In this document: positions 5,385 to 57,938 of the stretch, piece by piece
How positions within the stretch are numbered: position 1 is the stretch's first letter
How the letters are laid out: each line of letters opens with the position of its first letter
Virus genome (UHGV): UHGV-1384413
Length of the DNA: 64,000 nucleotides
Reading direction: 5' to 3' (one strand)
Source of the DNA: a virus
Program-made: the position numbers and the translations under genes
Notes under the pieces: model-generated
What the model was told of the DNA's origin: nothing
What the model saw: only the letters and a program-made list of their open reading frames with translations
Databases searched by the model: none

Positions 5385-6284
5385 ATGGCAAATCTTAACA
5401 GCTTTAGCACTCGGTGGAAACAAGATATCACAACCAATCTCTCAGCAGGTGATATCCTTTCTGCAATTTACGAGGCTTTGGATGATAAAGCTACTTCAAA
5501 ATCGGTTTGTACCAACCCGCTAATTCCTATAGTAATGAAGGTTATTGAGCGTAGGCTGGTATCCGGATCTGATAAGTGGACATATCTGGATAATGGAGGC
5601 CACACTTACTCCAATGGCTATGTCGATATAAAAGTAGAATATGCGGTATCATATCGCCGGAGCGGCTCTGTAACTTTCAACTTCTCTGGTGGTTTCCGAT
5701 CTCTGGCAACTTCACCTTTTGTTTCCTCAGAGGAGAAGTTTGAACTTCCGTTCCTTTGGATGATGGCTAACGCGACAGGCAAAACCCCCGTAAGCATTCG
5801 CGTAAAATACAACTACAACGGATCTAGTAAGATCTATGCCGAGAGTGTCTCAGCAAGTTTTTATTTTGTGATGGGGGATGGAATCCTCAAACATATAAAG
5901 ATGTGCGATATGCATGATGTTATAAATGAAGTGACTGATAAGAATGTTCTGGTGAAGGATCTCAACAATTTTTATACACCTGGAGACTATTACGTCAACC
6001 GTCCACTGTGTATCTTTAATGCCGCACACCCTTTAGGTGAGTATCTGATCGCCAATAGCGATATTGCCAATAACCGCTTCGAGGTAGCAAGAGTGCAGAA
6101 TGAGGTGTTGACATCTTGCAAGAGCGGTGATAAGTTTACCGAAGAAGAGATGGGTGTTTTAGAAATGATGGGATATAAGTGTAGCCTTTGGGTGGATGAG
6201 GTGTTTAATGACGGCATCTACGGACAGGGTATTTACCCGTTAAAGAAGTATACTGATTCCAGTCTAATTTACGCGGAGATTTGA
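5385..6284 (+). CDS. hypothetical protein (299 aa)
   Basis: ATG at M15 of track ORF preceded by AGGAG; first gene of plus-strand operon. Confidence 0.55.
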   Translation: MANLNSFSTRWKQDITTNLSAGDILSAIYEALDDKATSKSVCTNPLIPIVMKVIERRLVSGSDKWTYLDNGGHTYSNGYVDIKVEYAVSYRRSGSVTFNFSGGFRSLATSPFVSSEEKFELPFLWMMANATGKTPVSIRVKYNYNGSSKIYAESVSASFYFVMGDGILKHIKMCDMHDVINEVTDKNVLVKDLNNFYTPGDYYVNRPLCIFNAAHPLGEYLIANSDIANNRFEVARVQNEVLTSCKSGDKFTEEEMGVLEMMGYKCSLWVDEVFNDGIYGQGIYPLKKYTDSSLIYAEI

Positions 6285-6286
6285 CT

Positions 6287-6559
6287 ATGATGAAGTCATG
6301 TGGTAGTGTATATTATGTTGGTGAGAATGTTCAGGCAGACAATGTGTGGAAATCCATTAAGTCCACCACCGACGATGCCTTCTTGAGTGGGTTATGTTTC
6401 CCAAATCCAGGAGACATTCTCCCCCACTCCGGAGATTTTGTTGTCAACAAGACGGACGGTTATACCGTGTGCCTGATGGTTGAAAAAATCTTTTTAGACA
6501 CTAGACACAATCACCGCCTTGTGTTAAAATTTCAAGAATGTAAAATGACAGTTGCCTAA
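6287..6559 (+). CDS. hypothetical protein
   Basis: ATG at M3 of track ORF, GGAG 8 nt upstream. Confidence 0.5.
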   Translation: MMKSCGSVYYVGENVQADNVWKSIKSTTDDAFLSGLCFPNPGDILPHSGDFVVNKTDGYTVCLMVEKIFLDTRHNHRLVLKFQECKMTVA

Positions 6560-6571
6560 GGAGGCCTACCA

Positions 6572-6928
6572 ATGTCTAAAGTTACTTATCGTGCAGCTAT
6601 TTACTGCAATGAGCAACCAATCAACAGTGATGGTCACTGCTTTTTTAAAGAAAATCAGTTGGGCTGTATTGCCCTCCTTGATGAAGGGGAAGGGTATATG
6701 ATTGCATTGACAGGGTTTGAGCCTGAAGCCTTGGAAGCCAATCTGGACTACCTGGTAGAGAAGGGTGCTGCAGACTTGGTTGCCAATGGCCTCTCTATAG
6801 GCCTTGAAGAAGTGGAGCGCTTCATGGGCAATTACCGTGTAGTGCGTGAGTTTACTATCGAGGTGGAAACTCCAGAGTGGGGTAGCACTGAAACTAATGC
6901 TGAAGAAAAAGAAGAGGGGGTAGAATAA
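6572..6928 (+). CDS. hypothetical protein (118 aa)
   Basis: ORF with AAGGAGG RBS. Confidence 0.55.
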   Translation: MSKVTYRAAIYCNEQPINSDGHCFFKENQLGCIALLDEGEGYMIALTGFEPEALEANLDYLVEKGAADLVANGLSIGLEEVERFMGNYRVVREFTIEVETPEWGSTETNAEEKEEGVE

Positions 6929-52160: not shown

Positions 52161-52622
52161 TTACTTAAACAACAGTTCAAAATAGTGCAAAATTAACAGA
52201 AGTTGAATTACGCCTAGCACAACTGCAAGTATGTTGATCTTAGAATCAAAAAACTTCTTAACTTTTACCCTAAAAGGCTCCTTAATGTCCTTTACGATCC
52301 TATTTATAGATGATTTCATATCCCTGATTACCATCCTAAACATTAGAGACGGATCTTCCTTCTCTGTAACGGAATCGAAAACATACTCTCTTCGGTCATA
52401 AGGACCTCCAGATCTGCGTATTAACCTCTCCACAGATACCTCGTACGACACACCTGTAACGTAATCATCTATGACAAGTAGTGACGGGTCTTTATCGTCC
52501 AAAGGTATCAAAGTTATCTTTCCAGATTTTGTTAAAATTTCTCCTTTTTCAAGCAGTGTGTACCAATGCTCTCTACCAAGGTTGTTGAGGCACGTTTTTA
52601 CATATTTAACAAACATCGTCAC
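52161..52622 (-). CDS. predicted C-terminally membrane-anchored protein (153 aa)
   Basis: C-terminal hydrophobic segment ILAVVLGVIQLLLIL. Confidence 0.5.
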   Translation of the reverse strand: MTMFVKYVKTCLNNLGREHWYTLLEKGEILTKSGKITLIPLDDKDPSLLVIDDYVTGVSYEVSVERLIRRSGGPYDRREYVFDSVTEKEDPSLMFRMVIRDMKSSINRIVKDIKEPFRVKVKKFFDSKINILAVVLGVIQLLLILHYFELLFK

Positions 52623-52822: not shown

Positions 52823-53039
52823 GATAATTATACATCAGCGCCGCGCCACCTAAAATGGCTACCAGCAGTAATACCCCAGAGAGCATTTCAATAAACATGG
52901 CTTGAAACATTAGAAGGCCCCCTAATTTCACGCACCATTTTAAATACATATTCTTTTCCCATAAAGGTGCCCGGCTAAGATCTGCGTAGAATGCAATCTC
53001 TTTAAGAACAGTATAAACAGTTTTAGGTGCGGTATCCAT
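52791..53039 (-). CDS. predicted membrane protein
   Basis: Start moved to internal ATG (M16 of track ORF); hydrophobic helix. Confidence 0.45.
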   Translation of the reverse strand: MDTAPKTVYTVLKEIAFYADLSRAPLWEKNMYLKWCVKLGGLLMFQAMFIEMLSGVLLLVAILGGAALMYNYLEKGDSNDKK

Positions 53040-53259
53040 CCCTACTCTCCTTTTTCCCCTTACGGATATTCTTGTGGTAATCAACTAGGCACATTATTAC
53101 GATGAAGATAACAACAGGCCAAAAGGGCGCAGCAGTGATGATGGTGATAAAATCATCAAACTTCACCCTTCGTGTAGACACGATGCATATACCTGCCAAG
53201 ATTACTGCTGTTAGAACAGCTACTACCAGGTAACCTATCAGCACAGCATCTATACTCAT
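53023..53259 (-). CDS. predicted membrane protein (78 aa, two TM helices)
   Basis: Two long hydrophobic stretches. Confidence 0.5.
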   Translation of the reverse strand: MSIDAVLIGYLVVAVLTAVILAGICIVSTRRVKFDDFITIITAAPFWPVVIFIVIMCLVDYHKNIRKGKKESRDGYRT

Positions 53260-54762: not shown

Positions 54763-55047
54763 CTACCAGGTCACTGTCAAGTAGGCAACTGTGTTATTTT
54801 TCTCCGGGGAGATGCCAACAACATCCACCTGCAGACCTCCTGCCCTCAAATCCCCAACGATGTGTGGGAAGTAGTCTGAGAGGTGTGATGGAAGATTTAT
54901 CGAAAATCCGCATCCCAGAAAGCCTGCTAACGCCTTATTTTGTATCTCCCCTACAATCGCATCATAAATGGAGTTAAGCTCGTCAGGGAGAGTTACAGGA
55001 CGTTTTAGCGCTAACTGGTGCAACTTGTCCTTAGCACTCATTTTCAT
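54763..55047 (-). CDS. hypothetical protein
   Basis: Start at internal ATG (M24 of track ORF), giving ATGA overlap with the Dam stop; GGAGG RBS. Confidence 0.45.
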   Translation of the reverse strand: MKMSAKDKLHQLALKRPVTLPDELNSIYDAIVGEIQNKALAGFLGCGFSINLPSHLSDYFPHIVGDLRAGGLQVDVVGISPEKNNTVAYLTVTW

Positions 55048-55577
55048 TTCAAGTCTGCCTCCGGAGGTGCCAACCACATAAATGGTGGTAGGTCTAAACG
55101 GTTCTTCTTGTCCCACACAAAATATGCATATGCTTGCCCGTCAGTTCTGCCATTCGATTGGAATGATGGACGCTTAGATATTGTGATCACAGTGGTAGGG
55201 GCATTATCAAGCCACCATTCAAATCTGGCCTTGCTTTCCAGAAAATTAAGACGCAAAAGCATAATAACTACGTCGGCATCTTTCAACGCCTTGTCCACAA
55301 ACTCACGAGCCAGGCTGTACGGCGGGTTGGTGATAATACAGTCAACATGGTTGTATTCTGTATTCAGATAGTCAACACCTTCTTGGATTTCTCCCCATGC
55401 AGATCCTAACGGCATACGGGAGTAGAACACACCTGAGGCGCTATTCCTGCAAGGCTCCAAATAGGTCCAATCTTCTGGGAACGGAATGAGGTCATACAAC
55501 CCTTCTGCACACCACTCTGGTGTCACATATTCATCATAGGCGTTACGTTGTTCGTCAGGTTTTCTAGCACAAGTCAT
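55044..55577 (-). CDS. DNA N6-adenine methyltransferase, small phage Dam type
   Basis: 177 aa; DCIITNPPY (motif IV NPPY); size fits small phage Dam-type enzymes. Confidence 0.6.
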   Translation of the reverse strand: MTCARKPDEQRNAYDEYVTPEWCAEGLYDLIPFPEDWTYLEPCRNSASGVFYSRMPLGSAWGEIQEGVDYLNTEYNHVDCIITNPPYSLAREFVDKALKDADVVIMLLRLNFLESKARFEWWLDNAPTTVITISKRPSFQSNGRTDGQAYAYFVWDKKNRLDLPPFMWLAPPEADLK

Positions 55578-55591
55578 GCAAATCTCCAGAT

Positions 55592-55617
55592 CATAAAAGC
55601 CCTCCGAAGAGGGCTTT
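55592..55617 (-). terminator. intrinsic terminator (minus strand) downstream of the protease gene
   Basis: AAGCCCTC-cgaa-GAGGGCTT hairpin followed on the minus strand by TTTTAT; approximate coordinates. Confidence 0.5.
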
Positions 55618-55628
55618 AAGATTAATGT

Positions 55629-56678
55629 TTAAGCTTCTTCGATAATTCCTGCGCCCAGGATTTTTTCATTGAGCTCTTTTGCTGTTTTAATAATATTGTC
55701 CACCAGACGCTTGCGGGTCTTATCTTTAACCTGAACTTCTTCACCTCCGTTCAGGGTGGTTTTCAATTGGGACAAAATGTCCTGAAGCTCTACCACAGAG
55801 AATCGCTGCAGATCTTCCGAGGTAATCTCACTCAGTGCAATCTTAACGGTCTCACCACTCTCCATCTGCAGATTCAGGAACACAGTGTGAACATCACCTT
55901 TCATACCATTTGCTTTTGCAGACTCAACAGCGTGAACCAGCTCGTCCAGAGATGTGCATTGGTGAATCTCTGGCAGGCCTGCTTCGCCTAGCACACCTTC
56001 TTCATCACTTTTTGCCAAAAGCTTTTTCGGTTTCTGCCCATTCTGAATGCGCTGAATGTTTTCATCGTCCAGAATGATAGCACCAGTTCGAGCTGCCAGC
56101 TCTTCTCCATCCAACCACACTTCTCCACCAGCCGTGATGGATGCGATCTCATCTTCTGTCAGAACCCCACCGTAGTATTTTTCGATCAGGCGTTCAAAAC
56201 GTTTCTTCCAGTAGTTGACCTGAGTATTCATGTTCACACCGTTGCCATAGGTGCCACCTTGATAGTAGTGGAACATAAACTCTGTGTCCGGAGCCACAGT
56301 TCGTTCTTTGCAACCCAGCCATAAGATTGTTCCTGCTGAGCAGCACATCCCTTCAGCGTGTACAACAACGCTTGCCTGAGACTCGCGGAATGCCTGCAAA
56401 TACGCCATGGCAATGTGGACGCAACCACCAGGGCTGTTAACAATTACACGGATACTTTCTTCCGGCTGTGCCATACGAATTGTTTGCAAACGGGACATAT
56501 GATCCTGCAAATCATCAAGATCGTCAATATAAAGCACGTGGTCAACAACTGGCGTTGGGTAGCTGTATGTTTCCATAATACCACCAGGCATACCAAACAT
56601 TTTATTACTCATCGGTTCGAAGCCGTTCTGTTTTTCTTTCATGCCGTGTACCATGGTGCTGCGAGGTGTTAAATTCAT
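55629..56678 (-). CDS. ClpP-fold serine protease with C-terminal extension
   Basis: 349 aa; RVIVNSPGGCVHIAMAYLQAF, GMCCSAGTIL and FMFHYYQGG collinear with ClpP motifs as I recall them; about 180 aa of extra C-terminal sequence. Confidence 0.6.
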   Translation of the reverse strand: MNLTPRSTMVHGMKEKQNGFEPMSNKMFGMPGGIMETYSYPTPVVDHVLYIDDLDDLQDHMSRLQTIRMAQPEESIRVIVNSPGGCVHIAMAYLQAFRESQASVVVHAEGMCCSAGTILWLGCKERTVAPDTEFMFHYYQGGTYGNGVNMNTQVNYWKKRFERLIEKYYGGVLTEDEIASITAGGEVWLDGEELAARTGAIILDDENIQRIQNGQKPKKLLAKSDEEGVLGEAGLPEIHQCTSLDELVHAVESAKANGMKGDVHTVFLNLQMESGETVKIALSEITSEDLQRFSVVELQDILSQLKTTLNGGEEVQVKDKTRKRLVDNIIKTAKELNEKILGAGIIEEA

Positions 56679-56738: not shown

Positions 56739-57050
56739 TTATTTAGCAATTACCATGGAATACTTACAATTGTCAGAAGCATCACAGGTCAACGATTGCC
56801 AGTCTACCACATACCACGTGTCATTGTCAACAATTACTTTATCCCCTGTTCTGTAAAATGTGTTGCTTTCAATAACACGGGACTCAGTGAAGAATCGGTG
56901 TCTTCGCTCACGTAGTAGCGCCAAGTTGATTATGTTACCACCGCTGTCCTTAATCCACACATTCTTGTATCCTTTGTTTGCCAAAATTGTCTCACCGTTA
57001 TAGACAAATAGGCAGTATATCTTATTCAGTCTCTCTTGTATTGTAGCCAT
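56739..57050 (-). CDS. hypothetical protein (103 aa)
   Basis: ORF in operon. Confidence 0.5.
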   Translation of the reverse strand: MATIQERLNKIYCLFVYNGETILANKGYKNVWIKDSGGNIINLALLRERRHRFFTESRVIESNTFYRTGDKVIVDNDTWYVVDWQSLTCDASDNCKYSMVIAK

Positions 57051-57149
57051 ACTGTCATTCTCCTTGTTTTGTTCGATAATACCTAAAACTTATCTGTTTG
57101 TCAATAATTGTTTTAGATATTTAAGGGTGGAATAACCACCCTTTTTGTA

Positions 57150-57938
57150 TTACTCGGAAACAGGCGTCCAAATATGATTTGCACGATCCTTAATAAGATT
57201 GAGTGCAATCTGACGACCCAACCCGGAACGAACGACATCATCTGGGCTATCAAAGCTAATCATCCCAACCTCAGGATCTGGATGACGAGTAAAGAAATCC
57301 GTTACCCATGCAAGCCCAGACTTACCAGGGATGTCACGTTGGCTATTATCACCCATGATTACAAGTGTGGCCTGATCAGAGATCCTTGTGATAATTGACA
57401 ACATCTCTTCAGGGTTAGTTTGCTGTGCCTCGTCAATTAGGACAAAGCATCGCTCATCGAAACTACGACCACGAATGCTTTCAACTTCACAGATCTCGAT
57501 ACGACTGTTCTGACCATCTCCCAGCATTGCGGCAAAAGCACCTTTGCCAACACGACGACAAATCGTGTCCATCATGCTTCGGAGATAGGGCCACAGTTTC
57601 TGCATTGCGTTTCCAGGTTTAAACCCTGAAGTCTTTCCTGTCTGAACGTAAGGGCGTGCAACAATGATCTTATCAATCTCGTTCTTACGCAAAAGATCAC
57701 CTGCATATGCGGATGCCATGAATGTCTTACCGGATCCAAACACACCGTTTACAATAATAATCTTACGCGATCCTAGATAATCAAGATACTTTTGCTGCTT
57801 TTTGTTCATTGGTCTGAGAGCTGGAGCTGTGTGCTCTCGTTCGTCAGCAAATTTCTCAGCAGCCTTACGCAGACGATCAGATTTGCGAGCCTCTTTGGCT
57901 TCATCACGCATGCGTTTTGTTTCTTTAGCTCGACCCAT
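57150..57938 (-). CDS. phoH: PhoH-like ATPase
   Basis: Walker A GVFGSGKTF; VLIDEAQQ Walker B; 262 aa. Confidence 0.75.
   Translation of the reverse strand: MGRAKETKRMRDEAKEARKSDRLRKAAEKFADEREHTAPALRPMNKKQQKYLDYLGSRKIIIVNGVFGSGKTFMASAYAGDLLRKNEIDKIIVARPYVQTGKTSGFKPGNAMQKLWPYLRSMMDTICRRVGKGAFAAMLGDGQNSRIEICEVESIRGRSFDERCFVLIDEAQQTNPEEMLSIITRISDQATLVIMGDNSQRDIPGKSGLAWVTDFFTRHPDPEVGMISFDSPDDVVRSGLGRQIALNLIKDRANHIWTPVSE

Follow-up and report, generated by a model that had tools for sequence, protein, structure and literature searches.

The ClpP-like protein of rV5-like phages: a ClpP-fold peptidase encoded away from the head module, with a lost ATPase-docking pocket and an apparently orphan C-terminal domain

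The closest described counterpart of the gene considered here is that of gp122 of phage rV5, a 349-aa protein listed in 2013 as "ClpP (ATP-dependent) protease subunit" (PMC3606486, Table S3). The rV5 gene, its similarity to ClpP, its promoter and its terminator are already published, and the ClpP label was drawn from similarity alone. Beyond rV5, the systems with which it can be compared are bacterial ClpP itself (MEROPS S14, E. coli ClpP, TIGR00493), the ClpP-related head-maturation proteases of phages (NF045542; PHROGs 1684, 94, 2976, 133), and the short 'ATP-dependent protease' family of PHROG 1827 (ICP1 gp211, BF23 ORF45, PR1 gp048). The literature that we searched yielded no functional study of the ClpP-like family, and a 2023 paper describes the function of the T5-like homologue as 'currently unknown'. 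To this we add that the "ATP-dependent Clp" label is supported neither by the curated protein models nor by the docking pocket, that an XkdF-type protease for the head is encoded separately by the phage, and that the C-terminal domain of the protein appears to be an orphan.

The window, i.e., the whole 64-kb stretch of DNA that was analysed, comes from a Vequintavirus (an rV5-like E. coli phage); it is 99.4% identical to S127 BCL3, NHEP1 and ECP26 and is matched by 123 phage records at 90% or above. The ClpP-like serine peptidase gene is a real ORF at 55629-56678 on the minus strand, encoding 349 aa plus a stop codon, with an AAGGA Shine-Dalgarno sequence ~6 nt 5' of its ATG. The protein gives a full-length match to PHROG 5410 (E=3.9e-155; residues 24-344 on profile positions 4-321 of 323), and shares with rV5 gp122 its length of 349 aa, the neighbours gp120 (PhoH), gp121 and gp123, the promoter P121 and the terminator t122, with 96-99.7% protein identity across Vequintavirus records and no material difference. 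By these comparisons we assign it as the orthologue of rV5 gp122, an object already known and widely annotated, and use that name for it below. More than 100 near-identical GenBank records carry a gp122-type gene, and tblastn recovered homologues in 949 phage records, 180 of which cover at least 80% of the protein and are essentially Vequintavirinae. The idea that the gene is an unusual one thus does not survive the database searches, the exact gene having been annotated since the rV5 paper. Among the records are ~19 UNVERIFIED "Campylobacter phage" entries with C. jejuni as the stated host (e.g., MG065690.1); their genomes are those of Vequintavirus, the ClpP-like gene being 96% identical, and the host assigned to them looks doubtful.

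The ClpP fold proposed in the original prediction is well supported. Pfam PF00574 (CLP_protease) matches residues 59-169 at 48.8 bits against a gathering cutoff of 20.2, the ORF sequence matches PDB ClpP chains (E=5e-8), and an AF2 model of the 349-aa protein built with 19 homologues as input (mean pLDDT 76.9, core ~90) superposes on solved ClpP over ~160 residues in a Foldseek search of the PDB (E~4e-10, TM(target) 0.63-0.69). The fold, the positions of the Ser and His residues and the handle helix are shared with bacterial ClpP, from which gp122 differs in its low identity (~18-23%), in the replacement of Asp171 by Glu or Gln, in its replaced docking pocket, in its dissimilar N-terminal region, and in the ~135-150 aa added at the C-terminus. 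The equivalog model for ClpP, TIGR00493, is far from being reached (32.4 bits vs 308.6). The true ClpP equivalog models stand at 32-40 bits (cutoffs 228-309), and among other ClpP models 20-40 bits was reached where 228-361 is required. The nearest curated model is NF045542, "head maturation protease, ClpP-related", at 61.2 bits, still below its cutoff of 120; the NCBIfam model for fusions of a ClpP-like prohead protease with the major capsid protein scores 54 bits against 475, and the head-maturation family phrog_1684 matches gp122 at E=9e-23. As these NCBIfam scores all lie under their cutoffs, gp122 falls outside both equivalog definitions, and we place it, on these profile comparisons, in a phage-specific branch of the ClpP superfamily (PHROGs 5410 and 1827) that is neither ClpP nor a head-maturation protease in the equivalog sense.

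An alignment of 19 homologues (41-69% identity) allows the protein to be divided into several regions, all encoded on the minus strand. Residues 1-43 (56550-56678) are predicted to be disordered (pLDDT <50) and carry a motif of the form N-x-[FYM]-G ... [FY]-x-Y-P, in which G29, Y40 and P41 are invariant. The hydrophobic-Gly-hydrophobic element in this tail (MFGM/FFGM/RFGY) bears a superficial resemblance to the IGF/LGF loops of Clp ATPases. The ClpP-fold core follows at residues 44-202 (56073-56549; pLDDT ~90), with the predicted catalytic Ser114 in a CSAGT motif (codon 56337-56339) and His137 in an MFH motif (codon 56268-56270), both invariant across all 19 homologues. The position of ClpP Asp171 is taken by Glu186 (codon 56121-56123), is Gln in most homologues, and is Asp in ICP1 gp211 and PR1 gp048; this variation at the third triad position makes the catalytic efficiency of the enzyme uncertain. 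After the core comes a conserved motif, LLDxxNIxRxQxGxxP (residues 203-217, 56028-56072; N207, I208 and G214 invariant), and then a linker (residues 218-265, 55884-56027), partly of low confidence, with one helix at 244-257 and with length and sequence varying between genera. The protein ends in an acidic domain (residues 266-349, 55632-55883) modelled as a beta-hairpin, helix, loop and long helix, with pLDDT 78-95 in the full-length model and with F293, E297 and R322 invariant. Since the last helices of the core are those at residues 191-198 and 205-212, the C-terminal extension is ~135-150 aa long, shorter than the ~180 aa of the original prediction.

The C-terminal domain is acidic in nearly all family members and matches little outside the family. 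A profile of residues 200-349 found no matches among PDB sequences and Pfam, and the one significant match of this region in BFVD, a library of viral folds, is a 303-aa protein that is probably itself a family member. When residues 262-349 were compared with 1.84 billion representative proteins, six matches were returned: three full-length family members, two fragments and a spurious cadherin-like repeat protein. The C-terminal extension of ICP1 gp211 was considered as a homologue and rejected (hhalign probability 0.4%). These searches indicate a lineage-specific orphan domain, confined to Vequintavirinae-type phages and matching no known fold. The ClpP C-terminus emerges at the apical face, and the simplest reading of the domain is that of a module for protein-protein interactions, held at that face by a flexible tether.

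All parts of the protein are under strong purifying selection. By the Nei-Gojobori method applied to four Vequintavirus orthologues, dN/dS is ~0.03-0.05 for the whole ORF, ~0.02-0.05 for the core and 0.03-0.05 for the C-terminal domain (dS ~0.5). Residues 1-43 show zero non-synonymous changes in pairwise comparisons of the four, and one variable residue among ten orthologues. An apparent patch of low synonymous change at codons 203-265 was seen with four sequences and vanished with ten, and we regard it as an artefact of sampling or mosaicism.

The genomic setting is largely as originally described, i.e., between a methyltransferase and phoH, among nucleotide-metabolism genes and with a terminator of its own. 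Downstream of the gene lies a DNA methyltransferase-like ORF (55044-55577); upstream, PhoH (57150-57938) is followed further out by NrdG and NrdD, with the qualification that a 103-aa ORF stands between the protease and PhoH (56739-57050, minus strand; the orthologue of rV5 gp121, PHROG 5456). This ORF has an AAGGAG Shine-Dalgarno sequence and is co-transcribed with the protease. The intrinsic terminator (55593-55617, minus strand; AAAGCCCTC TTCG GAGGGCTTT TAT) is a GC-rich hairpin lying 11 nt past the stop codon, GCCCTC-TTCG-GAGGGC-TTTTAT when written out, and is identical to the published rV5 t122, for which a dG of -14.9 kcal/mol has been given. At the other end, a sigma70-type promoter at 57076-57104 (minus strand; TTGACA-17-TATTAT, 11/12 matches) is the published rV5 P121, so that P121 and t122 bound a two-gene unit of gp121 and gp122. 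In the published rV5 listing the late-promoter motif (TGGTAAAATA-like) is found at structural-region genes only. Because P121 is a near-consensus sigma70 promoter and the late motif is confined to the structural region, the unit appears to be transcribed by the host's RNA polymerase in its unmodified form, which suggests that it is expressed early or in the middle of infection.

A perfect 8-bp hairpin at 57123-57143 (AAGGGTGG-TTATT-CCACCCTT) lies directly past the phoH stop and just upstream of P121; its U-tract is on the plus strand, with none on the coding (minus) strand, and it is absent from the rV5 terminator list. As to gp121, the 103-aa form is found only in Vequintavirus. The segment D-K-V-I-V-D-N-D-T-W-x-V-V-D-W is common to it and to the 158-164-aa genes that immediately precede the ClpP-like gene in Mydovirus and Certrevirus. 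The shared segment is short (BLASTP E=2e-4 over 19 aa; hhalign probability 23%) and the genes otherwise look unrelated; gp121 may be a partner conserved across genera. In the window at large (1-64000), Rfam and tRNA scans found no Rfam families or tRNAs, and PADLOC defence-system models gave nothing meaningful. The sign of the GC skew switches near 6 kb and at ~42-46 kb, in step with the switches of coding strand between gene blocks.

Comparable settings recur in other phages. Mydovirus DP and Certrevirus PBES02 keep the order PhoH, 3-4 small genes, ClpP-like gene and methyltransferase, and in the unrelated Vibrio phage ICP1 PhoH (gp208) is followed by gp209, gp210 and the ClpP-like gp211 (326 aa), such that a PhoH-(1-4 small genes)-ClpP-like synteny within nucleotide-metabolism clusters is common to Mydovirus, Certrevirus and ICP1. 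The ICP1 cluster gp176-gp211 peaks at 12 min, in mid-infection and ahead of the late genes, which speaks against late expression together with the structural genes; a capsid protease, gp125, is predicted separately in ICP1 (PMC7567579). The homologue in PR1, a T5-like phage, is flanked by a dNMP kinase gene and the lysis genes and is provided with a terminator of its own. The PHROG 1827 proteins are akin to gp122 in their homologous core (hhalign 99.6% probability, residues 43-212) and in their location in early/middle nucleotide-metabolism regions, with PhoH nearby in ICP1; they differ in that ICP1 gp211 and PR1 gp048 keep Asp as the third triad residue, in that the C-terminal extension of gp211 has no detectable homology to that of gp122, and in that BF23 ORF45 has been seen in virions. 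A placement of ClpP-like genes outside structural modules, which had been thought unusual, occurs in many large lytic phages, including ICP1 and the T5-like, PAK_P1-like and KVP40-like phages.

The near-identical phage NHEP1 (PQ511146.1), in which the window corresponds to ~32-96 kb and the head module to 1-9.7 kb, shows where the capsid genes lie. The ClpP-like gene is ~30 kb from this module. The genes of the module encode, in order, the terminase, the portal protein (PHROG 113, Pfam Portal_Mu), proteins of 190 aa and 325 aa, a decoration protein and a lambda-E-type major capsid protein, and the module has its own protease between the portal gene and the scaffold-like, decoration and major capsid genes: the 190-aa protein (6021-6593) matches Pfam Peptidase_S78_2, the XkdF-type phage serine proteases (E=1.2e-17), and also the head-maturation PHROG 3017. 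This gene is labelled 'DNA methyltransferase' in NHEP1 (via PHROG 1530), and with the start as annotated it shares 86 nt with the portal gene; judging from the matches above, the label is likely erroneous and passed on among pharokka-style records. The view that gp122 lies far from any structural gene in the window holds with regard to the head module and less well with regard to a gene ~3 kb away, the orthologue of rV5 gp133 (52161-52622, minus strand; 151 aa, one TM segment), which bears the label 'structural protein (MS evidence)'. It sits among small non-structural genes, near a putative holin orthologue (53023-53259), and the MS support for rV5 gp133 amounts to 2 peptides and 2 spectra, making its virion status weak.

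None of the 19 rV5 MudPIT virion proteins matches gp122 in length or mass; mature virions often no longer contain their prohead protease, which limits the weight of this absence and of the corresponding one in CB7. In the Certrevirus CB7, the ClpP-like protein has no counterpart among 26 virion proteins, and CB7_5, the orthologous "prohead core protein protease", was detected (PMC7344957). The separate S78_2 head protease, the sigma70-type promoter and the absence from rV5 and CB7 virions together support the original suggestion that the ClpP-like protein is not the prohead protease; it is a second protease, apart from that of capsid maturation. The same features, i.e., a position outside the head module, a sigma70-type promoter and another prohead protease in the phage, set it apart from the NF045542-type head-maturation proteases, which are nonetheless its nearest curated relatives by score and which, like it, are ClpP-fold enzymes specific to phages and frequently extended at the C-terminus.

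With a ClpP-related head-maturation protease as the nearest curated model, a capsid-linked ancestry or role is possible. In its explicit form, gp122 would be a second maturation protease that has been displaced and is directed to proheads by its C-terminal domain, much as scaffold-type tails act in prohead proteases, or a low-copy protein packaged in the virion and delivered with the DNA, and we consider this unlikely. In its favour, the best curated matches beyond the protein's own PHROGs are head-maturation proteases, and the homologous Clp protease ORF45 of the T5-like phage BF23 was found at a low level in purified virions. That signal is weak (3 peptides), and the same preparation also held DHFR, a likely contaminant (2023 paper). 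The canonical head slot is moreover already filled, by a protease whose CB7 orthologue is seen in virions, and the promoter type, the nucleotide-metabolism context and the failure to detect a gp122-type protein in rV5 or CB7 virions speak against a structural role. Lambda gpC/Nu3 is a protease-scaffold fusion, and gp122, in which a protease is joined through a linker to a helical domain at the C-terminus, resembles it in architecture. However, gp122 offers no nested start codon from which a scaffold protein could be made separately (the candidate Met259, considered in the style of lambda C/Nu3, lacks a Shine-Dalgarno sequence and is not conserved), and its C-terminal domain matches no viral structural protein in the viral fold library.

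The residues of the E. coli ClpP pocket that receives ADEP and the IGF loops have been listed (bioRxiv 10.1101/2023.03.01.530711). We mapped them onto the gp122 family in an ungapped register anchored by the NSPGG, Ser and His motifs. The E. coli ClpP sequence used for this agreed at all 19 residue identities checked. The hydrophobic pocket for the ClpX/ClpA IGF/IGL loops (Y60, Y62, F82, I90, M92, L114 and others) is not conserved in the gp122 family: Y60, F82, I90, M92 and F112 correspond to R77, E99, H107, E109 and T127, each invariant in 19/19 homologues, L114 corresponds to Ala or Ser, and L48, F49 and E51 fall within a 5-residue deletion. With a conserved polar surface in place of the hydrophobic pocket, canonical docking of ClpX or ClpA appears unlikely, and since the curated ClpP models fail as well, the "ATP-dependent Clp" label is probably wrong or misleading for this family.

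These observations bear directly on whether gp122 could be a genuine ATP-dependent Clp subunit, forming a tetradecamer that docks host ClpX/ClpA or mixing with host ClpP and so redirecting host proteolysis. Such a subunit would need a ClpP fold and the Ser and His residues, and gp122 has both; no Clp-type unfoldase is annotated or was detected in the phage, so that any ATPase partner would be the host's; the phage ATPases considered for this role gave only sub-threshold generic AAA matches, kinase-like matches and a PIF1 helicase. Against this stand the five pocket positions that are invariantly polar or charged and the three more that are deleted, the TIGR00493 score of 32 bits against a cutoff of 309, the lack of conservation of the triad Asp, and an N-terminal region that does not align with the axial loops of ClpP. 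We judge a genuine Clp subunit to be quite improbable, with a non-canonical ATPase partner possible despite the loss of the pocket. A precedent for a C-terminal extension combined with an altered hydrophobic pocket is ClpP1 of M. smegmatis, in which the extension and the pocket composition block ATPase docking on that face of the ring (PMC6889138). The ClpP1 extension differs in being short and lying within the pocket of a genuine ClpP1P2 complex, whereas in gp122 the extension consists of 150 aa of linker and folded domain, and the protein has no known partner ring. That gp122 is a catalytically dead pseudo-protease acting as a chaperone, scaffold or inhibitor of host ClpP, as the Glu or Gln in place of the triad Asp and, speculatively, an N-terminal hydrophobic-Gly-hydrophobic motif able to occupy host ClpP pockets might suggest, is highly improbable in the face of Ser114 (CSAGT) and His137 (MFH) being invariant in 19/19 homologues and a core dN/dS of ~0.02-0.05, which is consistent with a retained active site.

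The reading that we favour, with somewhat better than even confidence, is that gp122 is a non-structural ClpP-fold Ser-His peptidase of early or mid-infection that dispenses with canonical ClpX/ClpA docking and uses appendages of its own for gating and for the binding of targets or partners. It would act in the cytoplasm of the infected cell and be distinct both from the protease of capsid maturation and from genuine ClpP subunits. Its fold suggests by analogy that it most likely assembles into a ring, as a self-compartmentalised peptidase in which Glu186 assists an active site of Ser114 and His137. As the canonical IGF/IGL-loop pocket is not conserved, host ClpX/ClpA would not be recruited through it, and the peptidase may work independently of ATP. 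The choice of substrates, which might be host proteins, as originally suggested, or phage proteins, or of partners would instead most likely fall to the conserved disordered N-tail and to the ~85-aa acidic domain on its ~50-aa flexible linker, these appendages serving as protein-binding bait or as regulators. What the sequence analysis itself establishes is the fold, the catalytic residues, the lost docking pocket, the transcription unit, the distance from the head module and the purifying selection; the ring assembly, the independence of ATP, the part played by the C-terminal domain and the substrates are inferred.

We also offer, as a bolder proposal that we think has a rather small chance of being right, that this peptidase is an AAA+-independent protease of host takeover or counter-defence, with seven acidic baits flexibly tethered to each ring and with the conserved N-tail, not ClpX/ClpA, gating the chamber. 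The bait would hand a specific host protein to the chamber, e.g., a nucleic-acid-binding defence or nucleoid protein, with the acidic domain mimicking DNA. The BF23 virion data hint that a small fraction of the protein might perhaps even enter virions and be delivered together with the genome.

More generally, non-structural ClpP-like genes are conserved across several unrelated groups of large lytic phages, including the Vequintavirinae, ICP1, and T5-like and PAK_P1-like phages, and the strong purifying selection argues that they are in use. The two conserved appendages of gp122 offer pointers for experiments. If the protein does degrade specific host proteins, it would represent a new class of phage effector for host takeover or anti-defence, which would be of relevance to therapeutic rV5-like phages.
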